Below are positions 3,334-62,584 of a stretch of DNA of 64,000 nucleotides, piece after piece. How positions within the stretch are numbered: the first letter of the stretch is position 1; every line of letters starts with the position of its first letter. Origin of the DNA: Elusimicrobiaceae bacterium (lineage in GTDB: Bacteria; Elusimicrobiota; Elusimicrobia; Elusimicrobiales; Elusimicrobiaceae); contig JAZRAH010000088.1 of NCBI GenBank assembly GCA_045634505.1, positions 6,474 through 70,473 on the forward strand, written 5' to 3'. Below the pieces are notes generated by a model. That model was not told where the DNA came from. It made no database searches and saw only the letters and a program-made list of their open reading frames with translations. The position numbers were made by a program, and so were the translations under genes.

Positions 3334-5073
3334 ATGCTCGTATTGAAAGGGATCCCTGCCAGCCCGGGTATAGCCATTGGCAAAGCCGTTTTACTGCCGG
3401 GGCAGACGCTTACCGTATCTAAACATTACATTGCGTTAGAAGCGGTAGAGGGGGAACTGCGTAAATTAGAACGGGCCTTGGAAAAAACCTTGCAAGAGTT
3501 GGACGAAAGTGCCGTCAAAGTGCGCGAAACGTTGGGGGCCGAATATGCTAACTTGATGGTCACCCATAAACTTATTTTGCAAGACCCTGCCTTAAAAGGG
3601 GCGGTGGTGAAAAAAATTCAAACTGATTTTTTAACTGCGCACTCGGCTATTTCGCTCACCATTCAAGAATTAGCTGCCAATTTTGATAAAATTGAAGACC
3701 CCTTTTTTAAAGAACGCCGTAACGATATTTACGACGCGGGCAAACGGTTGCTTGCAAATTTAGAGGGCAATAAAAAAGATTTTTTGGCCTCTATTAAAAA
3801 ACCTTCTTTGCTAGTGGCGCACGATTTATTTCCGTCCGACACTATTGCCCTGCCGGAAAACCAGATTTTAGGGTTCTGTACCGATATTGGCGGCAAAACC
3901 AGCCACACCGCACTTTTGGCGCAAAGTTTAAACATCCCGGCCGTGGTGGGATTGTCCACCGCGTCCAAAGACGTAGCCAATGGGGACACCCTTATTATTG
4001 ACGGGGAAAACGGACTTTTAGTGATCAACCCGGACCGCTATACCTTGGCTAACTACCGCCAAATTAAGCGTGAACTTAAAAAAACAGAATCACTCCTCAA
4101 AACCATTAACCATTTGCCCGTCATTACGCAGGACGGACGGCGGGTGCATTTGTATGTAAATTATGACCCGCGCACCGACAATAAATATAATAAAACTTTA
4201 ATTACCGACGGTCTTGGCCTGCTGCGCACGGAATTTTTGTTTATGAATACGCCGGTGCCGCCGTCTGAAGAGGCACAATACAAAATTTATTTGGCAGTAG
4301 CCAAACGCTTTGATATGCGCCCGGCCACCATTCGTCTGGCAGATTTGGGCGCGGACAAAATGCCCGATTTCCCACTGGATGAATTAGATGATGACGACAA
4401 CCCGTTTATGGGGTGCCGCGGGGTGCGTTTACTGCTTAAAAACCCGGATATTTTGCGCACGCAACTACGCGCCATTGTGCGCACGGCGTGTGAAGTGCCG
4501 GCGCAAGTGAAAGTGATGATCCCGATGGTGTCCTCGGTAGAAGAGGTGCGCCATGTACGCCATGCATTTGACGAAGTGCTAGCCGATTTTGCCCAAGAAG
4601 GTAAAAAACCGCTTAATAAAATAGCCCTGGGAGCTATGATAGAAGTGCCCGCCGCGGCTATTGCGCTAGACGGAATGATTAACGAGCTGGATTTTATTTC
4701 CATTGGTACCAACGATTTAATCCAATACTTAGTAGCGGTAGACCGCGTCAACCCCGAAGTGGCCCACATGTACGACCCGTGCCACCCGGCGGTGGGGCGC
4801 ACGATACACAGTATTATTCAAACGGCACACAAACGCAATAAAAATGTGTCTATTTGCGGGGAAATAGCCTCGGACGCTAAAATGCTGCCGCTGCTTTTAG
4901 GGTGGCAAGTGGACGGGCTCTCCGTTACGCCGCGGATGTATTTGCGTGTAAAAAACAATATCCGCAATTCCAATTTTGAGCATTGTTGCGACTTGGCACA
5001 AGCCGCCCTTTTAATGGGCAGCTCGGCTGAGATTCGCGCACTAGTAGAAGATAATAACCATGAAAATTCGTAA
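3334..5073 (+). CDS. ptsI: PTS enzyme I
   Basis: GGKTSH, GLLRTEFLF, DFISIGTNDLIQY, SICGE. Confidence 0.95.
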   Translation: MLVLKGIPASPGIAIGKAVLLPGQTLTVSKHYIALEAVEGELRKLERALEKTLQELDESAVKVRETLGAEYANLMVTHKLILQDPALKGAVVKKIQTDFLTAHSAISLTIQELAANFDKIEDPFFKERRNDIYDAGKRLLANLEGNKKDFLASIKKPSLLVAHDLFPSDTIALPENQILGFCTDIGGKTSHTALLAQSLNIPAVVGLSTASKDVANGDTLIIDGENGLLVINPDRYTLANYRQIKRELKKTESLLKTINHLPVITQDGRRVHLYVNYDPRTDNKYNKTLITDGLGLLRTEFLFMNTPVPPSEEAQYKIYLAVAKRFDMRPATIRLADLGADKMPDFPLDELDDDDNPFMGCRGVRLLLKNPDILRTQLRAIVRTACEVPAQVKVMIPMVSSVEEVRHVRHAFDEVLADFAQEGKKPLNKIALGAMIEVPAAAIALDGMINELDFISIGTNDLIQYLVAVDRVNPEVAHMYDPCHPAVGRTIHSIIQTAHKRNKNVSICGEIASDAKMLPLLLGWQVDGLSVTPRMYLRVKNNIRNSNFEHCCDLAQAALLMGSSAEIRALVEDNNHENS

Positions 5074-8932: not shown

Positions 8933-9160
8933 ACAATTTGATTCTGTTTTTGGAAGCGTTTAAGAAACGCAGTGCTTAGCAAAGCCCTCATTCCCTCCAA
9001 AAACAGCCGTTTAACAGGTACAAAATGACGACGGTCGTTTTGTACCTAGTGTTTGCCGTTCGCAAGGACGGCAAGCCGCGGCTGTTATGTTGGGACTGGG
9101 AATGAGGACCAATACTAACAGCCGTTTTTGCATGCGTTTTCCAAACCAGACAAATTGAAT
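8933..9160 (+). ncRNA. Structured pilin-leader element, copy 1
   Basis: ACAATTTGATTCTGTTTTTGGAA...TCCAAAAACAGCCG...CGGCTGTT...AACAGCCGTTTTT...TTCCAAACCAGACAAATTG; barcode CCTCATTCCC (8986-8995)/GGGAATGAGG (9098-9107). Confidence 0.85.
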
Positions 9161-9162
9161 TA

Positions 9163-9185
9163 TAGGTCAGGTGTTAGCCTGACAT
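9163..9185. repeat. GTAG-type REP-like palindrome
   Basis: TAGGTCAGG-N-CCTGACA; 7 copies in window (9163, 19088, 19165, 20330, 56433, 56604, 61664). Confidence 0.75.
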
Positions 9186-9202
9186 AAAAAAGGAGACGTA
9201 AC

Positions 9203-9982
9203 ATGCAAAACAAAAACCAACCCGTCATTGCGAGGAGCACCGCGACGAAGCAATCCACTCAAAACAAAAAAGGCTGTCATTCCCGAGTGTTTTTATCGGG
9301 AATCTACAACGCATGCCGTTGTAAAATTGAGGGAAATTCCTTATTAAATAGGTACGTGGAAGATCCCCGACAGAAACCCTCGGGGATGACCTCTTGTGTT
9401 ACAACAGCCCGCGGCTTTACCGCCCGCTCCGGTTTTACTCTTATGGAGCTGTTAGTTGTAGTTTTAATTATTGGCATTTTGGCCGCCGTGGCTGTGCCAC
9501 AATACCAAAAAGCGGTTAAAAAAGCGCGGCTAGCAGAATTTATTTCTACCATTTCTTCTATTGAAAAAGCGGTGGATGTATGGCTTTTGGAAAATGGCGG
9601 ATACCCTGAAGATTGGGTGTGGTTTACTAGTAAGGAGAACCCTTCCCTTACTTATTCTTCGCTAGATATTAAGATGTCTTGTGCGAAAGAGGATCGCTCA
9701 TCTTGTTACACCCGGCTGGGAGGATGGGATATCTATTGTATGCCTTCTTCCTGCGGTATCAATTTATATACAACTTATGATGAAAATGGAGCAACTACAA
9801 ATACTTGGTTAGATAAGGCGTTTATTTCTGTACGCAAACGCCCGTCCGATGAAAATATATGGAAAATAGAAAGTGCTACCCAAAATACAAAATTAGTTTG
9901 CCAAGTGTGGAAGGAAACTTTTGGTACGTCTCATATGCGTGCAAGTTTTAAAGAGACGTGTGCGGAATTAGGGGTAGAATAA
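9203..9982 (+). CDS. Type IV pilin-like protein 1 (PilE-type) with 77-aa leader
   Basis: G|[28 protein letters not shown]; SD AGGAG; Cys-containing variable C-terminus. Confidence 0.9.
   Translation: MQNKNQPVIARSTATKQSTQNKKGCHSRVFLSGIYNACRCKIEGNSLLNRYVEDPRQKPSGMTSCVTTARGFTARSGFTLMELLVVVLIIGILAAVAVPQYQKAVKKARLAEFISTISSIEKAVDVWLLENGGYPEDWVWFTSKENPSLTYSSLDIKMSCAKEDRSSCYTRLGGWDIYCMPSSCGINLYTTYDENGATTNTWLDKAFISVRKRPSDENIWKIESATQNTKLVCQVWKETFGTSHMRASFKETCAELGVE
9223..9390. repeat. CGTC-type REP half plus REP doublet inside prepilin leader 1
   Basis: CGTCATTGCGAGGAGC..GACGAAGCAATCC (9223-9256) and TGTCATTCCCGAG...CTCGGGGATGAC (9275-9390). Confidence 0.8.
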
Positions 9983-18088: not shown

Positions 18089-18715
18089 CTAACCGGCTAC
18101 CGGTTTTTTGTGGTTGGTTTTAATGTGTAAATTGGTAGCCTGCGCGGCTTGTTGGGCTTGCTGCTCGGCTTGCGTGAGCGCCTGCTGTGTAAGCGTTATC
18201 AGTTGCTCCCCGACGTTGGTTTTTAACTGGGCTATATCCGCTTGCAACGCGGTAATAGCAGGGGTTAATTGCGCGTTTTTTTGTGCTTTATAGGCGCGCA
18301 GTAAAGTTTCTTTGACTTGCACGCTAACGGCCCAAATGCGCGGATAAAGCGTATTTAATTTTTCCCGTGCGTGTGCGCGTGCGGCGGCGGTTACGTCTGT
18401 GCCGTGTTGGGAATAAATCAGCGCTTGCTGATATTGGGCGAGCGTTTGATTAAGAGCGAGTGAATTTTCAAAATTGCGCGCTAACGCAATAAGCGTATAG
18501 CGGTTTTCCAGCGTATCAGCCGAATGTTGGGACACAAATTGACGTAAAAGTTGGTCAAGCAGTTGGTTTAACTGTTCGTCCTGCGCGGCTTTTTGTAGTA
18601 ACGCCGGGTTATACGCGGCAAAAACCTCGCGCGCCTCTTCGCGCGTGAGCGTTCCCTGAGCGTAAAGTGCCGAGCAGAGCGAAAAAGTAGCTACTAAAAG
18701 AATGCCGCGTTTCAT
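18089..18715 (-). CDS. Hypothetical secreted helical protein
   Basis: Signal-peptide-like N-terminus; Ala/Gln/Leu-rich. Confidence 0.65.
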   Translation of the reverse strand: MKRGILLVATFSLCSALYAQGTLTREEAREVFAAYNPALLQKAAQDEQLNQLLDQLLRQFVSQHSADTLENRYTLIALARNFENSLALNQTLAQYQQALIYSQHGTDVTAAARAHAREKLNTLYPRIWAVSVQVKETLLRAYKAQKNAQLTPAITALQADIAQLKTNVGEQLITLTQQALTQAEQQAQQAAQATNLHIKTNHKKPVAG

Positions 18716-18796
18716 AGCTTATATTTTACTATATTCTTAGAACGCGCGCGCGTGAAATTTTTTCACACCCATTGTGTTTTTTGCTATACTATGGAT

Positions 18797-19016
18797 ACAA
18801 TTTGATTCTGTTTTTGGAACCGTTTAAGAAACGGGGTGCTTTATAAGCTATCTTCGAGTCCAAAAACAGCCGATATTAGGCACACAAAGGCGACGGCCTG
18901 CGTGTGCCGAGTGTTTCCCGTCTTAATGACGGGAGGCTGCGGCTGTTGTCCTAAGACCTCGAAGATACTTAGTGTCAATAGCCGTTTTATGTGTTCCGGA
19001 TGACAGGAAAATTGAA
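18797..19016 (+). ncRNA. Structured pilin-leader element, copy 2
   Basis: TATACT 18785-18790, 6 nt, then ACAATTTGATTCTGTTTTTGGAAC; barcode TATCTTCGAG (18849-18858)/CTCGAAGATA (18958-18967). Confidence 0.85.
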
Positions 19017-19038
19017 ATTTATCACAGGAGCACATACT

Positions 19039-19710
19039 ATGAACCTTACAAACAACACCCGGCGGGGGAAAACGCAAATCAAACGGGTAGGTCAGGCTCG
19101 GCCTGACAATGCCCCTAGCAAGAAGCATCCCTCAGTTCTTATAATGGGAAAGGACACCCTATGTTGTCAGGTAAAACCTGACCTACATAGCAGGCGCGGC
19201 TTTACGCTTATTGAGCTACTGGTAGTGGTACTCATCATTGGTATTTTGGCGGCGGTGGCGGTGCCACAATACCAAAAAGCAGTAAAAAAAGCGCGCTTGG
19301 CCCAACTGGATGTTACCATCAATGCCCTTACCAAAGCTATTGATCTGTACGTACTGGAAAATGGATACCAGGAAGTGTCTTTGACGGGAAATTCCGGTAA
19401 TAGCTTGGATTTAGATGTGCTATCGTGTTCATCCACCACGAGCTCTTCTTGTACGAATGAATATGGCGAGTGGGAAATTTACTGTTTAAGTGAAACCTCT
19501 TGTATGATTGGCATATATGGTCCTTATGGTACCACTCCATTTGCCGATGAACTTTATTTTTATAAATACCAAAATCAACACAATCAACAATGGGTATTTT
19601 CTATTTTGGAAGGTGACGAAGATAACCTAAAATTATTGTGTCAGTGGGCTAAGGATAAGTTTATTTTCGACAGTGATGCCACAAGTGCCTGCGCGGCAGT
19701 AGGTGTTTAA
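19039..19710 (+). CDS. Type IV pilin-like protein 2 with 54-aa leader
   Basis: G|[28 protein letters not shown]; SD AGGAG at 19026; two GTAG-type palindromes in leader (19088, 19165). Confidence 0.9.
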   Translation: MNLTNNTRRGKTQIKRVGQARPDNAPSKKHPSVLIMGKDTLCCQVKPDLHSRRGFTLIELLVVVLIIGILAAVAVPQYQKAVKKARLAQLDVTINALTKAIDLYVLENGYQEVSLTGNSGNSLDLDVLSCSSTTSSSCTNEYGEWEIYCLSETSCMIGIYGPYGTTPFADELYFYKYQNQHNQQWVFSILEGDEDNLKLLCQWAKDKFIFDSDATSACAAVGV

Positions 19711-26397: not shown

Positions 26398-26630
26398 ACA
26401 ATTTAATCTGTTTTTGGAAGCCGAAAGGCACCGTTGCCAAGGGCAACAATTATCACTCCAGAAACAACCCAATCGGGTGCAAGGGAAACGGACTAATTAC
26501 CCGTTTATCTTGCGCCAAATGTTTTCCGTTTTGCGGAGAGCTGCGGCTGTTTGTGTTTCATGGGTGTGATAATTCATGGGGCTATGCAGCCGTTGTTTTA
26601 TGGGTGCGTTTTCCAAACGGACAAATTGAA
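26398..26630 (+). ncRNA. Structured pilin-leader element, copy 3
   Basis: TATACT 26386-26391 + 6 nt; barcode AATTATCAC (26448-26456)/GTGATAATT (26566-26574); ends TTCCAAACGGACAAATTGAA. Confidence 0.85.
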
Positions 26631-26654
26631 TTAAATGAATAGTGAGGAAAACGT

Positions 26655-27308
26655 ATGAATCACAAAAACACCCGGCGGGGTAATACGCAACAAGTAATAA
26701 ATAAAAATTGTCATTCCAAATTTAATTTGGAATCTCACCACTTTTTACTGCCTAAGGTGAGATCCCGTATCAAGTACGGGATGACGGGCTTATTAAATAA
26801 CGGCGGGTTTACCCTCATTGAGCTATTAGTAGTGGTGTTGATTATTGCTATTTTGGCGGCGGTGGCACTGCCGCAGTATCAAATGGCTGTACTGAAGAGC
26901 CGGGCCGCACAAATGATACCGCTAGTGCGTAGTCTGTCTGTGGCACAAGAAACCTATTATTTAGCCAATGGACAATATGCAGAGACTTTTGATGAATTAG
27001 ATGTGTCTTTGCCTGGCAAAACAAATCAATCTTGTGTTTATCTGCGTCATGGGGACTGTGTGGTTTTGAAAAATGGGTGGGAAATCAATTTCACAGGGGA
27101 TACTCACAAGGGGGGCGTAGAGGCATATTTACCAGACAGCGGTTTTAAAATTACGTCATACTGGTTAAATACAGATGATGATATAGACAGAATTGGCCTA
27201 TACGGGAATATAACTTGTGTCGTATTTCCTGGATTAAACGAACAAGGGAAACGGATATGTTCCAACTTGGGAAGGCCAACCTCTAATGAAAGATTTTTTA
27301 AACTGTAA
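26655..27308 (+). CDS. Type IV pilin-like protein 3 with 51-aa leader
   Basis: G|[28 protein letters not shown]; REP doublet 26709-26786 in leader. Confidence 0.9.
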
Positions 27309-36066: not shown

Positions 36067-36089
36067 AATTATTTCCTTTTTATTTTCCC

Positions 36090-36316
36090 GGGCCCGGCAT
36101 AAAAAACGGCTTATTATACCGAGCTCAACAAGGTCGCTCTATATAACAGCCGTAGCTGCCGTTTTTGTAAACGGCAAACATTCAGCACAAAACAATGGGG
36201 TTATAAGGCCCATCATCTTGTGCTTTATACAGCTGTTTTTGACCTTGTTGAAAGTTGCTTTCGCAGCTGACCCGCATGCTTATCATGCGGTTTCAAAAAC
36301 AGTAAAAAACAATTGT
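36090..36316 (-). ncRNA. Structured pilin-leader element, copy 4
   Basis: Minus strand ACAATTG..CTGTTTTTGA...TCAAAAACAG...CGGCTGTT...AGCCGTTTTTT; 11-bp barcode at 36241-36251/36125-36135. Confidence 0.82.
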
Positions 36317-36400
36317 AATTGTGTATGCGCCTGTTGGCGCTGGGGTACACCTCCCACGCTAAAAGATACTTTATTATAGCAAAAAAGCTACAATATAATT

Positions 36401-38366: not shown

Positions 38367-38597
38367 ACAATTTGATCTATTTTTGAGCCGTATGTAGAAT
38401 ACGGGTCTGCTTTGAAAAAAGCACCCATCGAAGTCAAAAATAGCCGATAAATAGGTGCAACGGGACCGTACATCCTGTTGCACCGAGTGTTTCCCATTTT
38501 TGCCTTGTGCAAAAGTGGGAACCTACGGCTATTATATTAGGTATCTTCGATGGGGCCTGGTATAAAAGCCGTTTTTGCATGCGCTTGGGATAGGTCA
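38367..38597 (+). ncRNA. Structured pilin-leader element, copy 5
   Basis: Compensated CTATTTTTGA/TCAAAAATAG and TAGCCG/CGGCTA; barcode CCCATCGAAG (38424-38433)/CTTCGATGGG (38545-38554). Confidence 0.85.
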
Positions 38598-38611
38598 CTA
38601 AGGAGGAAACC

Positions 38612-39274
38612 ATGCAAAACAAAAATGTAACTATAAAAAATAATGATTATTCCCAACAAAAATACTCGGGAATAACTATTACAAGAAACTGTCGTCATGC
38701 TGAACTCGTTTCAGCATCTAGTCGTTATGATAACAACCAGACCCTGAAACAAGTTCAGGGTGACGGCAGTAGCGGCTTTACGCTCATTGAGCTGTTAGTT
38801 GTGGTACTTATTATTGGCATTTTGGCCACCGTGGCGTTGCCACAATACCAAAAAGCGGTGTATAAAAGCCGTGCCGTGGAAGCAGTAACTGTGCTAAAGG
38901 CACTTGTGGATGCGCAAGAAATTTATTACTTAGCCAATGGGGAATATACGGATGATATTTCAAAATTAGACGTAAATATCCCGGCTGAGTTAATAAAATC
39001 TTCCTGGGCGGCAGAGCCCCTATTTGAAGACAAGTATTCTTATACATGTGCTAGAAAGAGGGAATGTGGCGCCAGCGCAAAAAATAATAATTTGCCCGAT
39101 TTTCAATTTAATTTTAGGCATAGGGACGATGTGAATGCGGGAAAGTTCTATTGTAATTTAGGGGCCGGTAATTCTAAAACAGATATGGCTAAATCTATTT
39201 GCCAGAGCATGGGCCGTTTGGATGAAACCCGTACGGAAGCGTGGGCTGTGGGTAAGTATTTTATTATCAATTAA
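38612..39274 (+). CDS. Type IV pilin-like protein 5 with 55-aa leader
   Basis: G|[28 protein letters not shown]; REP doublet 38693-38765 in leader. Confidence 0.9.
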   Translation: MQNKNVTIKNNDYSQQKYSGITITRNCRHAELVSASSRYDNNQTLKQVQGDGSSGFTLIELLVVVLIIGILATVALPQYQKAVYKSRAVEAVTVLKALVDAQEIYYLANGEYTDDISKLDVNIPAELIKSSWAAEPLFEDKYSYTCARKRECGASAKNNNLPDFQFNFRHRDDVNAGKFYCNLGAGNSKTDMAKSICQSMGRLDETRTEAWAVGKYFIIN

Positions 39275-39278
39275 ACAC

Positions 39279-39496
39279 ATCACCGCGTACAATTTACAGT
39301 GAGCTGATTTTCGCACAACCTGTACTAAAACACCACGCTTCCCCAAGCACCAGATTTATAGAAGATAAGATGATTTTTCAGATTTGAGCCGTATTTGTGG
39401 GGCTAGTTGCCCGCATAGGCGTGTCTGAATGACACGTCAAGGGCAAGGGACCGCAAAGACGGCCAAATGTGGAAAATTGTATCGCTGGCAAGCAAC
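39279..39496 (+). repeat. Rod-shaped structured repeat (family S), copy B
   Basis: ATCACCG-CG-TACAAT...GATTTTTCAGATTTG...AGTTGCCC...GGGCAAG...CCAAATGTGGAAAATTGTATCGCT. Confidence 0.7.
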
Positions 39497-45267: not shown

Positions 45268-45342
45268 TGGTGGGCAGTACAGGATTTGAACCTGTGACCT
45301 TCCGCGTGTGAGGCGGACGCGCTACCGCTGCGCCAACTGCCC
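45268..45342 (-). tRNA. tRNA-Val(CAC)
   Basis: GGGCAGTTGGCGCAGCGGTAGCGCG TCCGC CTCACAC GCGGA...GGTTCAAATCC...CTGCCCACCA cloverleaf with encoded CCA. Confidence 0.95.
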
Positions 45343-47083: not shown

Positions 47084-47198
47084 AGTGGGTTTGGGCTCCT
47101 GTAATAAGGGAAAATAACAACTTACTAATAGTATATAAAATTGGGAGAGGTTGCTTTTGTTTATTTTTGTATAATAAAACTTGCCCAGTAAAGGGTTG

Positions 47199-47407
47199 CA
47201 ATTTTTTGTTTATAGATTATTTGTTGAAGTGCGGGGCAAGCCCGTGCCGAGCAAAATAGGGGACACCCTATGAGCATGTTAGAGATCATCAAATAATCGC
47301 CTTGCTTTGGCCTGCCTCTTATGGGGCAGGCTGGCGGCGGTTATTGTTTAAGGGTCATCTCTAACAGCTCTTAACTAAGATTGCCGCTTTTTTGTTGGGT
47401 AAATTAA
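47199..47407 (+). ncRNA. Structured pilin-leader element, copy 6 (divergent subtype)
   Basis: GATTATTTGTTGA/TCATCAAATAATC; GCGGCGGT/ATTGCCGC+T6; barcode TGTTAGAGAT (47277-47286)/ATCTCTAACA (47357-47366). Confidence 0.78.
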
Positions 47408-47425
47408 AAGCAAGGAGTAATAAAT

Positions 47426-50688: not shown

Positions 50689-50884
50689 ACAATTTGATGA
50701 TTTGTTGGAAGTAAGGGGCAAGCCCTTACTGCGCCGGGCGCAACTTGCGCAAGGCACATACGAGTCCGCAAATATCGTTGTTTTTCACCCGCCCCGTAAG
50801 GGGCGGGGGAGCGACGATTTGCACGGGTTACTCGTATGGCTCAGGCAATCGTCGTTTTTTGTCTGTGCCCGAAGAAACTATCAT
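50689..50884 (+). ncRNA. Structured pilin-leader element, copy 7 (divergent subtype)
   Basis: ACAATTTGATGATTTGTTGGA/TCCGCAAATATC; CGACGATT/AATCGTCG+T6; barcode CATACGAG (50757-50764)/CTCGTATG (50831-50838). Confidence 0.8.
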
Positions 50885-50897
50885 ACGAGGTGCACTT

Positions 50898-51642
50898 ATG
50901 CACATGTTTAGTCATACCCGGCGGGGTTTCACGCAAGACAGTCCTTGTCAAAATAAACGTCATTCCCGAGTGTCGTTATCGGGAATCCCCACCTTAGTCC
51001 CTCAAAATGGAGAAGATCCCCGATTACAGATCTCGGGGATGACGCTTTATAGAATAACAGCTCGTGGCTTTTCTCTACGCCGTCATCCTGAACTTGATTC
51101 AGGATCTTCAACGCTTGCCGTTGTCGTTCATAAACAGCGTGCGTGGAAGATGCCAAATCAAGTTTGGCATGACAACTTTACTGAATAATGGCGGGTTCAC
51201 CCTCATTGAACTCTTGGTCGTAGTACTCATCATTGGTATATTGGCGGCAGTGGCTTTGCCACAATATCAAAAAGCGGTTATGAAAAGTAGGCTCGGGCAG
51301 GTTCACAGTGTGCTGCGCACGTTGCGTACGGGTATAGATAATTATATATTGGCCAACGGAGCCGATGGGACAATCTTTTTAGGATATGATGAGGATAAAA
51401 CCTCGTTGTTAGACATTAACTTTGGTACCCAATTTGATTGTTCTGACCATGGAGACGATATTGCTGAAGGCTGTTTGCTTCACGATTTTGTGTATAGAGC
51501 CACCACTGATTATGTGGAAGCATACGATAAGGAACAACGTTTTTTAATAGGATATGACAACCGGGGTGAACAAGGTTGGCAGCCCAGTTGTGCTTCAGGA
51601 GGAGAATGGGCATGGATTTGTGATTATTGGAATAGTTTATAA
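50898..51642 (+). pseudogene. Type IV pilin-like gene 7; leader frame stops at 51188, pilin frame is +1 (possible restart at ATG 51169)
   Basis: SD GAGGTG then MHMFSHTRRGFTQ; two REP doublets 50958-51044 and 51081-51173; G|FTLIELL in the other frame. Confidence 0.75.
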
Positions 51643-56667: not shown

Positions 56668-56896
56668 ACAATTTGATTCTGTTTTTGGAACCGTATGCAG
56701 AATACGGATAGCTTAAAAGGCCATAGACAGTCCAAAAACAGCCGATACTAAGGTGCAGACGGGGACTATAGCCCTGCCTGTGCCGAATTGTTTCCCGCTT
56801 GCTAAAAGCGGGGAACTACGGCTGTTATGGCGTGTCACTGTCTAGGCGTGCTATAGCAGCCGTTTTATGTGCGTTTTCAGGGCAGAGTAAAATTGA
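56668..56896 (+). ncRNA. Structured pilin-leader element, copy 8
   Basis: TGnTATAAT + 6 nt; 8921-8955 and 56656-56690 identical; barcode TAGACAGT (56724-56731)/ACTGTCTA (56837-56844). Confidence 0.85.
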
Positions 56897-56919
56897 AAAT
56901 TAAAACGAGAGGTAAACGT

Positions 56920-57597
56920 ATGAACAAAAGACTTGCCCGGCGGGGAATAACGCAACAATTAATCAAAGGCAATTCAGTAAATATCCCTGAACTTGTTTCA
57001 GGGTCTTCCACGCAAGCTGCTGTGCAACAAAGGCCCCAACGACAGGCGTTGAAGATGCCGAAACAAGTTCGGCAATATCCTTATTTAACAAGGGGCCAGG
57101 GATTTACCCTGATTGAACTGTTGGTGGTTGTGCTAATTATAGGTATATTGGCTGCTATTGCCTTGCCGCAATACCAAAAAGCAGTATTAAAAAGTAGAAT
57201 GGTGGATGCAATTGGTATGTTGCGTACCATACAAAAGGCACAAGAAGTATATTATTTAAATCATGGGAATTATACAACCGATTTAGATGATTTGGATATA
57301 GAAATTCCAGCAAATCAAAAAGCTACTTCTTTTGCATATTCAAGTGAGTCTTATCCTTTGCGGTATTTTTACAGTTGCCATGCAAATGGATTTTGCGTAG
57401 CAGCGGCGCAGGATGATAATTTACCAATTATAGAAGTACACATGATGCATGCATTTTCTGGTAACAACAATCAGATGACTTGTGCTGCATTTAAAAACAA
57501 TACTTATAACAAAAGTAATTTGGCGGAGAAGCTTTGCCGAAGTATGGGGCCTGTTAGCCACACATGGGAAGGTACGGTATATTATGAAATACGTTAG
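56920..57597 (+). CDS. Type IV pilin-like protein 8 with 61-aa leader
   Basis: G|[28 protein letters not shown]; degenerate REP doublet about 56980-57078. Confidence 0.9.
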   Translation: MNKRLARRGITQQLIKGNSVNIPELVSGSSTQAAVQQRPQRQALKMPKQVRQYPYLTRGQGFTLIELLVVVLIIGILAAIALPQYQKAVLKSRMVDAIGMLRTIQKAQEVYYLNHGNYTTDLDDLDIEIPANQKATSFAYSSESYPLRYFYSCHANGFCVAAAQDDNLPIIEVHMMHAFSGNNNQMTCAAFKNNTYNKSNLAEKLCRSMGPVSHTWEGTVYYEIR

Positions 57598-61377: not shown

Positions 61378-61597
61378 ACAATTTGATTTGTTTTTGAGCC
61401 GTATGTGGAATACGGGTTGCTTCGTAAGAAGTATTCAGCAAAGTCAAAAACAGCTGAACAAAGGCACACAAAGGCGACGGCTGGCGTGTGCCGAGTGTTT
61501 CCTGCATTTTTTGTGGGGGCTGCGGCTGTTATGTTTGGTTACTTTGCTGAGACCTGACAAAGCAGCCGATTTTGTTGGCTCTGAATGGATCAATTGA
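61378..61597 (+). ncRNA. Structured pilin-leader element, copy 9
   Basis: TATACT + 6 nt; barcode TCAGCAAAGT (61435-61444)/ACTTTGCTGA (61541-61550); closing GAGCC/GGCTC compensation. Confidence 0.85.
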
Positions 61598-61622
61598 ATA
61601 GATAAACTAAGGAGCAAGCAAA

Positions 61623-62276
61623 ATGACGAACAAAAAGAATGTAGTAAATGAAAGAGTAACGTATAGGTCAGGTGCAAACCTGACAATGGCCTGTAAAGGC
61701 CAGTATAATGGATGTTGGGTTAGCACCCAACCTATAAAGAATACGGTTGCGAAGGGTTTTACCCTCATTGAACTGTTGGTCGTGGTGCTTATCATTGGTA
61801 TTTTGGCGGCGGTAGCCGTGCCTCAATATCAATTTGCCGTTGAAAAATCCCGGATGGCCGAGGCCCTTGTACAATTAAATTCGCTACAAAGGGCAATAGA
61901 TTCGTATTTGTTGGAAAACGGATATCCTGAAGGTGCAGAAAGTTTCTTGGGAAACCAGACAGATGGCAATGGTAAGTTGGTTATAGATGTTACCGGCTCG
62001 CTAGATTGCACCGTAAATAATGGACAGCACTGTGCCAGCCGTGATTTTTTATATAGCTCAGTATGTGACGGTGAACATAATTTCTGTGCCTTAGAAGCGC
62101 AACGGGTATTATCCGGTTATGAATCTACGGACAGCAACACAAAATATCTGTTAACGCTTTCAAAAACGCAGGATACCTGGACTAAAACATGTTATTATAT
62201 TGAAGAAAATTATCCGCAAGGTAAAAAACTGTGTGACAGTTTACAAACCCAAGGGTGGATTAGTGAGGAGTATTAA
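61623..62276 (+). CDS. Type IV pilin-like protein 9 with 45-aa leader
   Basis: G|[28 protein letters not shown]; GTAG-type palindrome 61664-61685 in leader. Confidence 0.9.
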   Translation: MTNKKNVVNERVTYRSGANLTMACKGQYNGCWVSTQPIKNTVAKGFTLIELLVVVLIIGILAAVAVPQYQFAVEKSRMAEALVQLNSLQRAIDSYLLENGYPEGAESFLGNQTDGNGKLVIDVTGSLDCTVNNGQHCASRDFLYSSVCDGEHNFCALEAQRVLSGYESTDSNTKYLLTLSKTQDTWTKTCYYIEENYPQGKKLCDSLQTQGWISEEY

Positions 62277-62312: not shown

Positions 62313-62512
62313 ATACAATTTTTCCGCACGCGTTACGCGTGCGGAATTTCATCACCGGGTAAAATAGCGGATAAGATGATTTTTCAAATTCGTGCTTAGT
62401 TTGTGGGGAAAAGTTGGCTCGTGGCGTACGTCTGCCGGACCGCGCGTAGCGCGGCAAGTACGTGAGAGCCAAGTCACCACAAACTAAGCCGAATTTGGAA
62501 AATTGTATCGCT
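62313..62512 (+). repeat. Rod-shaped structured repeat (family S), copy C
   Basis: ATCACCG-GG-TAAAAT...GATTTTTCAAATTCG GCTTAGTTTGTGG...CCACAAACTAAGC CGAATTTGGAAAATTGTATCGCT. Confidence 0.7.
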
Positions 62513-62584
62513 AAGAAATACGGAACTTTATGTCCGTCGTTTATTTTTCTTATACGCGCGTTCTAAAAATACTATAATAATAAT

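Follow-up and report, generated by a model that had tools for sequence, protein, structure and literature searches.

What does the long structured RNA ahead of a pilin-like gene do, and can it decide whether the gene is transcribed? The question is raised by positions 18797-19016 of the window, that is, of the whole 64,000-nucleotide (nt) stretch of an Elusimicrobiaceae genome analysed here (contig JAZRAH010000088.1). This segment has been confirmed as one of nine copies of an approximately 230-nt 5' leader, each upstream of a prepilin-type gene. The leader RNA has two mutually exclusive folds that share strands b and c, and both are maintained by selection. We consider it likely that the leader is a cis-acting transcription attenuator ahead of each of these genes.

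The original prediction described a competition of five strands, a to e, complemented by a long-range 'barcode' helix, and all of them were found where it had placed them. In copy 2, the copy at 18797-19016, they are a (CTGTTTTTGGA, 18808-18818), b (TCCAAAAACAG, 18859-18869, extended as b' to 18872, so that the strand shared between a and c reads TCCAAAAACAGCCG, 18859-18872), c (CGGCTGTT, 18940-18947), d (AGCCG, 18980-18984) and e (GTTCCGGATGACAG, 18993-19006, extended with AAAATTG to 19014), whereas the barcode helix is formed by its 5' strand BC5 (TATCTTCGAG, 18849-18858) and its 3' strand BC3 (CTCGAAGATA, 18958-18967), all on the forward strand. Several of these pairings are mutually exclusive: c can pair with b' or with d, the core of b with a or with c, and BC3 can serve either as a helix strand or as the apex of the terminator hairpin. 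Four further hairpins covary and are common to both forms. These are H1 (18820-18834; here CCGTTT-AAG-AAACGG, with all six stem pairs covarying), H2 (18838-18848; a variable stem whose loop is mostly a GNRA tetraloop throughout the family), H3 (18879-18908; all 16 stem pairs covary, and the loop in this copy is of the GACG type) and H4 (GTTTCCCGTC / GACGGGAGGC, 18913-18937; 93.3% paired, with nine out of 11 pairs changing on both sides).

The statistics below refer to 87 distinct leaders aligned with MAFFT without structural information (alignment A2), and the controls were 500 column shuffles and comparisons with slid registers. Both conformations beat all 500 shuffles and all slid-register controls.

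In the terminator form, a pairs with b, and the hairpin at 18940-18984, whose 5' and 3' feet are c and d and whose apex is BC3, is directly followed by a U-run (TTTT, 18985-18988). A terminator stem of five or six base pairs had been proposed for c and d; the actual stem is much longer, since the entire c-to-d interval is self-complementary and, folded in isolation, gives a hairpin of 17-20 base pairs closed by c:d in 87 out of 87 leaders (mean -21.0 kcal/mol, z = -4.6). The U-run, described earlier as four to six T in most copies, is present, its extent being rather four to eight consecutive T directly after GCCG in 70 leaders; the eight nucleotides after the hairpin contain at least four T in all 87 leaders and at least five in 84. 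The terminator alone is 83.6% paired, compared to 73.0% in shuffled alignments, and its covariation is 0.399 vs. 0.223 (none of the 500 shuffles is as high) and about 0.10 in the slid registers; in the upper part of the stem, all seven pairs have changed on both sides. For the companion helix, a:b, pairing reaches 95.5%: a3 and b9 form GC in 60 leaders, GU in 20 and AU in seven, mismatches are absent, and A at a3 (the same seven leaders) always faces U at b9. The transcribed strand thus carries a stable stem-loop with a U-rich tract directly after it, as in intrinsic terminators, and termination is expected at the U-run, ahead of the ribosome-binding site (RBS). A simple terminator scanner misses this hairpin because the stem is bulged and the scanner allows loops of 3-8 nt.

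The antiterminator form is made by two helices. One of them, b':c, is 97.8% paired; in the other, BC5, the 10-nt segment just upstream of b, pairs with the terminator apex BC3. This second helix is hypervariable, with all nine pairs covarying and four to six pair types at each, and it is copy-specific: cognate BC5:BC3 duplexes have a mean energy of -17.4 kcal/mol, compared to -7.5 kcal/mol for non-cognate ones, and in 65 out of 87 cases no other strand pairs as well as the cognate one. Considered together, the two antiterminator helices are 90.7% paired vs. 70.4% in the shuffles, and their covariation is 0.497 vs. 0.151.

Positions with two partners vary only in the ways that both partners tolerate. 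The sixth position of c is A in three cases, in all of which b9 is U, and d has U in two of the three. Some examples come from leaders that were found without the search pattern: C-to-U at c4 is matched by G-to-A in b and forms a wobble pair with d (L051); A at c6 meets U both in b and in d (L028); U-to-C in a is matched by A-to-G in b (L021). Three divergent leaders (those at 47190 and 50689 of the window, and L055) have quite different sequences of a, b, c and d and retain a:b, b:c, c:d, the long-range helix and the U-run. The paired positions include many G·U pairs, and therefore the selected structure is that of the sense-strand RNA.

The two forms are predicted to be of nearly equal stability. 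On the transcript ending at d, the difference E(T) - E(AT) between the terminator and the antiterminator is -2.0 ± 4.2 kcal/mol, with totals of approximately -60 to -90, and in 43 out of 87 leaders the two forms lie within 3 kcal/mol of each other; the estimated direct-path barriers, which are heuristic upper bounds, are about 25 kcal/mol each way. On the transcript lacking d, the antiterminator is 6.7 kcal/mol below the a:b state, with an estimated barrier of about 14 kcal/mol. The predicted equilibrium changes as the transcript grows: it is mixed at the end of c; once BC3 has been transcribed, b:c is preferred in every sequence (P(b:c) = 0.90); with d transcribed, 68% favor the terminator (mean P(c:d) = 0.63); and 60 nt further, with e included, the antiterminator is again preferred in 67% (P(b:c) = 0.61). 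The earlier notion of a bistable terminator/antiterminator is a fair description of this RNA design, with its exclusive covarying folds, near-equal stabilities and high barrier. With so small an energy difference and such a kinetic separation between the folds, the outcome would be set during transcription, by whether a holds b, and the switch looks kinetically decided according to these model estimates.

From this we infer the following order of folding events. Transcription would start near ACAATTT, at about A18797, judging from a sigma-70-type promoter with an extended -10 element (18762-18790, forward strand; TTCACA, a 17-nt spacer and TG-extended TATACT, 10 out of 12 matches); a -10-like hexamer ends 5-11 nt ahead of ACAATTT in 53 out of 88 family members. 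Strand a would pair with b first and thereby close a small domain containing H1, H2 and BC5, the last of these single-stranded, after which H3 and H4 would fold. The emerging c, and then BC3, could pair with b' and BC5, making a long-range antiterminator around H3 and H4. Finally, the emerging d could take c, so that the c-to-d interval zips into the hairpin followed by the U-run and a re-pairs with b.

Strand e had been assigned to one of the two switch states, paired with a. This part of the scheme does not hold: as e is transcribed after the U-run, a:e cannot join the termination decision, and e is missing in 18 out of 96 members (about 20%), which retain a, b, c, d and the U-run. The pairing itself is real, and the examples quoted for copies 1, 2, 3, 5 and 9 read as given. 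Duplex energies are at or below -15 kcal/mol in 66 out of 85 leaders, compared to -9.7 ± 2.6 kcal/mol for shuffled partners, and a3 faces its partner in e as G:C in 68 leaders, G:U in seven and A:U in three, with no mismatch. True covariation, which had also been claimed, is slight (cognate mean -16.8 vs. non-cognate -15.4 kcal/mol), because both strands are conserved in sequence; a:e was judged by duplex energies and the a3 partner table, as the column covariation test is uninformative with an almost invariant a side and insertions and deletions in e. The helix can be continued outwards, since CAATTT of the leader 5' end (ACAATTTGAT, 18797-18806) can pair with AAATTG at 19009-19014, and the minimum-free-energy fold of 18797-19016 is this fully nested form (-94.5 kcal/mol, z = -8.2 against 200 shuffles). 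Hence, a:e could only lock or stabilize the read-through mRNA once the decision has been made: e would capture the freed a, the 5' end would pair with AAATTG, and the mRNA 5' end would be held in a duplex.

Several points weigh against the attenuator interpretation. Termination at the U-run is predicted from sequence only, and the T-run is interrupted in 17 out of 87 leaders. The energies and barriers are estimates of the nearest-neighbor model. The leaders are paralogs and orthologs related by descent, and hence significance is exaggerated by the shuffle controls; the slid registers and the comparisons of cognate with non-cognate partners are unaffected by this kinship. The near-invariance of b':c is in part due to ascertainment, since parts of the 5' end, of b and of c were prescribed by the search pattern. 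A continuous antiterminator helix, in which the 5' half of b (UCCAAA) would pair with the UUUGGG-like segment after c, is unsupported, being 57% paired, the same as in the shuffles. Lastly, no sensor element or factor has been identified in the analysis of the leader.

As to the input, we consider a trans-acting RNA-binding factor or the kinetics of transcription (pausing, elongation factors) the most probable, with strand a and the a:b domain as the target; a small-molecule trigger is less likely. The strong conservation of a, b, c, d and e is explained in part by the fact that each of them serves two partners, and a common trans-acting factor would fit it as well. The loop of H1 is a G-N-R-G-A pentaloop in 42 out of 87 leaders (GCAGA, GAAGA, GTGGA, and others; e.g., CCGTATGCAGAATACGG at 56688-56704), a type of loop also known from boxB of phage lambda. 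The sequence gives no indication that the copies exclude one another.

Attenuation by a leader peptide has been rejected for the main class of leaders: the predicted transcription start is about 10 nt before a, and thus there is no room for the RBS of a leader peptide, and the ATG in H1 is missing from the common variant with the AAG loop (CCGTTTAAGAAACGG). A minority of leaders (L011, approximately 2881-2930; L013, approximately 3900-3951; L092/L074; L018; L099) have no -10 box just upstream and carry there AAGGAG, an ATG and a mini-open reading frame of one to nine codons in a small hairpin; these leaders mostly precede non-pilin genes and lack e, and in one of them the stop codon of the mini-frame is the TAA inside ACAATTTAAT, right before a.

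The apical loops of H3 have a feature of their own. They contain a 6-nt palindrome in 53 out of 87 leaders, compared to 4.6 expected from shuffled loops, whereas no H4 loop does (zero out of 87). There are ten different hexamers, including TAATTA, TTCGAA, TTGCAA, TCATGA, TTATAA and CTATAG; the loops are about 9 nt long, the hexamer is flanked by unpaired bases (A2 columns approximately 128-137), and each genome has several H3 loop classes, each common to one to four leaders. An intramolecular partner of the palindrome was considered and rejected, as the hexamer recurs at another place of its leader in only three out of 53 cases. A self-complementary apical hexamer with unpaired flanks is the arrangement of a kissing-loop hairpin like that of the dimerization initiation site (DIS) of human immunodeficiency virus 1 (HIV-1). 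The kissing loop of the HIV-1 site is about 9 nt long and has a 6-nt palindrome at its center, and the H3 loops resemble it in length, in the central palindrome and in the mostly purine or A/C flanks (e.g., A-A-UUGCAA-A and A-C-UAAUUA-C); they differ in that the H3 palindromes are AU-rich, bacterial and located inside an attenuator, and that dimerization is here only putative. As the copies share the switch strands and a small alphabet of palindromic H3 loops, cross-talk is conceivable: terminated leaders from one locus, if abundant, might dimerize via their H3 loops with nascent siblings and bias their switch. We regard such a network as very unlikely. If it existed, pilin paralogs could be expressed in concert or to the exclusion of each other with no rearrangement of DNA, with the copy-specific long-range helix keeping each switch folding in cis.

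Other explanations of the leader have to be weighed against attenuation. The same expression-platform logic would be used by a small-molecule riboswitch, in which a metabolite or a second messenger, e.g., a cyclic dinucleotide, binds a three-way junction (a:b/H1/H2 or b':c/H3/H4) and tips the balance. The loops of H1 and H2 are of the GNRA type typical of compact tertiary folds, and a riboswitch of the c-di-GMP-II class reportedly controls the type IV pilin gene pilA1 in Clostridioides difficile. Riboswitch aptamers, however, have extended invariant cores, whereas conserved unpaired positions outside the switch strands seem to be few here (mainly GAG between H3 and H4, an impression from A2 rather than a formal count), the linkers in the junctions differ in both length and sequence, and none of the Rfam riboswitch models gives a match at E up to 1-10; this makes a riboswitch improbable. 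Still lower is the probability that there is no regulated switch, only the nested fold being of importance for mRNA stability or processing and the c-to-d hairpin being a by-product or a leaky constitutive dampener. It is true that the full-length fold is very stable, as its z-score shows, that it is the preferred equilibrium state in 67% of leaders when e is present, and that a:e puts the 5' end in a duplex; but the upper terminator stem, which is incompatible with the nested fold, covaries in all seven of its pairs, the U-run is retained, and the members that have lost e keep a, b, c, d and the U-run.

The product of interest might also be the terminated leader of approximately 190 nt, a small RNA possibly dimerizing via H3, with pilin mRNA as a read-through by-product. 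In its favor are a strong-looking promoter, an efficient-looking terminator, the high degree of structure that the terminated RNA would have, and the excess of H3 palindromes (53 leaders vs. 4.6 expected); on the other hand, the leader lies in the sense orientation directly upstream of an RBS and an open reading frame (ORF) in 102 out of 106 copies, and the antiterminator and e are conserved, which would have no role in a stand-alone RNA. We regard this reading, as the main account of the family, as very unlikely, although production of a small RNA and attenuation can coexist. The least probable explanation, and a far-fetched one, is a miniature mobile repeat of the Correia or miniature inverted-repeat transposable element type, spread upstream of genes, with the 5' end and a versus e and AAATTG as its terminal inverted repeats. 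The ends are indeed inverted repeats, three metagenome-assembled genomes have at least 10-13 copies and the window has nine, and other small hairpin repeats are common in this genome. Yet the orientation and the distance to the start codon are fixed, the internal helices are hypervariable with compensatory changes, so that the copies are not near-identical, orthologous positions are shared with a related genome (L016, L086), the G·U pairs show selection at the RNA level, and some members have no e arm.

The attenuator reading can be compared with known systems. In the trp, his and pyrBI attenuators, pairings 1:2 and 3:4 (terminator) compete with 2:3 (antiterminator), and a, b, c and d of the leader play the role of strands 1 to 4; thus the attenuator or expression-platform logic that had been recognized earlier is borne out, the strands following the 1:2 / 2:3 / 3:4 scheme with both folds covarying. 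The leader differs from these attenuators in having no leader peptide and in the added fifth strand e and long-range helix. With the c-di-GMP-II riboswitch of pilA1 it shares the position in a pilin 5' leader and the competing terminator and antiterminator, but it has no Rfam riboswitch match and no evident conserved aptamer core. In the pil1 locus of Streptococcus gallolyticus, encoding sortase-dependent pili, an attenuation-like phase variation has been described, in which a leader peptide with a variable repeat length is translated and the ribosome destabilizes the terminator (PMC3894217). There, too, a premature leader terminator governs the expression of a pilus gene, and pil1 expression is heterogeneous between cells (PMC3894217); the leader studied here has neither a leader peptide nor a repeat tract.

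By analogy, the closest known design is the zipper-type attenuator cATTpLS20 of the conjugation operon of the Bacillus subtilis plasmid pLS20, experimentally dissected in 2026 (PMC13401043). It has three parts in succession, a weak stem-loop upstream, a long one in the center and a terminator downstream, the 3' strand of the upstream stem-loop being complementary to both the 5' stem and the loop of the terminator; its two forms are similar in free energy, conservation is highest in the upstream 5' strand, the trigger is unknown, and antitermination has been shown to be the default in vitro (PMC13401043). Its upstream stem-loop would correspond to the a:b domain and its central domain to H3 and H4 closed by b':c, with the terminator downstream in both cases; BC5 and b' pair here with the 5' foot and the apex of the terminator (c and BC3), and the energies are near-equal here too (-2.0 ± 4.2 kcal/mol). 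The systems have been compared by description rather than by leader sequence, and no sequence resemblance has been seen. They differ in phylum and in the genes downstream, stand-alone pilin genes here versus conjugation operons; in the central domain, which is here a three-way junction with two hairpins instead of one long stem; in the internal loop that splits the two antiterminator helices; and in the additional a:e lock after the terminator and the dozens of chromosomal copies. As the genes downstream are pilins, not the conAn antitermination genes with which the pLS20 element is associated, the leader is at most an analogue, not a homologue, of cATTpLS20.

How widespread is the leader? One pattern scan of 185,579 species genomes, with the pattern fixed in parts of the 5' end, b and c, gave at least 102 loci. 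Among the loci listed, 82 hold family members, and all 82 are from Elusimicrobiaceae or Elusimicrobiota; genera among the matches listed include Elusimicrobium, Parelusimicrobium and Avelusimicrobium, and most genomes have been assembled from gut or rumen metagenomes. The remaining listed loci, from other phyla, were discarded as chance matches of the pattern, the rest of the motif being missing. A profile search of the fetched loci and the window gave 106 copies. A profile of the divergent subtype, built from two window copies, added only one (L055, 5823-5598, minus strand). Two leaders of the window are nearly identical to those of a rumen Elusimicrobium genome, RUG10714, and in this related genome L016 and L086 are located on one contig with a spacing like that of window copies 8 and 2. 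An RBS and an ORF on the same strand directly follow the leader in the 102 copies mentioned above. Of these ORFs, 87 are pilin-like, and several more encode pilins whose pre-sequences are very long; the rest are glycosyltransferases of families 2 and 8, a zinc-ribbon membrane protein, and proteins with signal-peptide- or lipoprotein-like N-termini and no matching Pfam family. In Rfam 15 (cmscan), none of the nine window leaders matches a family, whether at gathering thresholds or at E up to 1, and in 18700-19100 the leader is unmatched at E up to 10; the sole Rfam match in the window is a tRNA gene at 45271-45342 on the minus strand (73.5 bits, tRNA model). Full-text literature searches returned no description of a pilin leader RNA in Elusimicrobia. 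The leader appears to define an attenuator family not described before, from Elusimicrobiaceae of the gut and rumen.

Within the window, seven of the nine copies are typical, starting at approximately 8933, 18797, 26398, 36324 (minus strand), 38367, 56668 and 61378, and two are divergent, starting at approximately 47190 and 50689, each ahead of a pilin-like gene. For copy 2, the RBS AGGAG at 19026-19030 is followed by the ATG at 19039, and RBS and gene together occupy 19026-19710 on the forward strand; the product matches PF07963 (E = 8.8e-9), with the N_methyl motif G/FTLIELL (the slash marking cleavage) after a 53-residue pre-sequence. On the same strand, copy 1 (8933-9202) runs to the pilin ATG. 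Copy 3 (26398-26654, forward) has the H3 loop ACTAATTAC at approximately 26470-26480, copy 4 (36067-36324, minus) the loop CCTTATAAC at approximately 36205-36197, and copy 8 (56668-56919, forward) the loop ACTATAG at approximately 56756-56762. Copy 5 (38367-38611, forward) has a variant a (CTATTTTTGAGCC), which its b (AAATAG), c (CGGCTATT) and e (GGGATAG) match, and the H3 loop CCGTACA at approximately 38457-38463; copy 9 (61378-61622, forward) has another variant a (TTTGAGCC) and e with GGCTC. The divergent copies, 6 (47190-47425) and 7 (50689-50897), both on the forward strand, keep the a:b, b:c and c:d logic with other sequences, e.g., in copy 7, b is ATCGTTG, c is CGACGAT and d is ATCGTCG followed by six T.

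Behind copy 7, the ORF from the leader ATG (50898) stops at 51188, and GFTLIELL occurs at 51193 in the +1 frame; the gene is a frameshifted pilin, i.e., a pseudogene, an assembly error or a phase-variable gene. The prepilin ORFs have pre-sequences of 44-76 residues ahead of the G/FTLIELL cleavage motif (19039-19200, 9203-9430, 26655-26805, 38612-38775, 56920-57100, 61623-61755). Many of these start with M..NTRRG, followed by translated small hairpin repeats, e.g., GATCCCCGA…TCGGGGATGAC or GTAGGTCAGG…CCTGAC; simpler family members have, instead of the translated repeats, a direct reading of 13 residues, and it looks like repeat elements have been inserted into the region coding for the pilin leader peptide. 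A second structured element is located just 3' of the pilin genes of copies 5 and 9 (39350-39495 and 62356-62521). This element, a long hairpin with imperfect pairing (about 125-145 nt, -61.4 kcal/mol, z = -7.1), has eight pairs that are preserved by two-sided changes between its two copies; its ends resemble the leader 5' end and strand a, and it has no Rfam match.

The leader thus represents a large orphan attenuator family, with about 100 examples outside Rfam, two covarying folds and a preferred state that flips three times, by model estimate, as the transcript grows. It offers a clean natural model for kinetically controlled co-transcriptional folding, and the palindromic H3 loops raise the possibility of RNA-RNA dimerization in a bacterial leader. 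The zipper-type design, known since 2026 from conjugative plasmids of Gram-positive bacteria, may have arisen independently in a distant phylum. For the Elusimicrobiaceae, which have unusually many pilin-like genes, the leader is a testable control point that most of these genes share.

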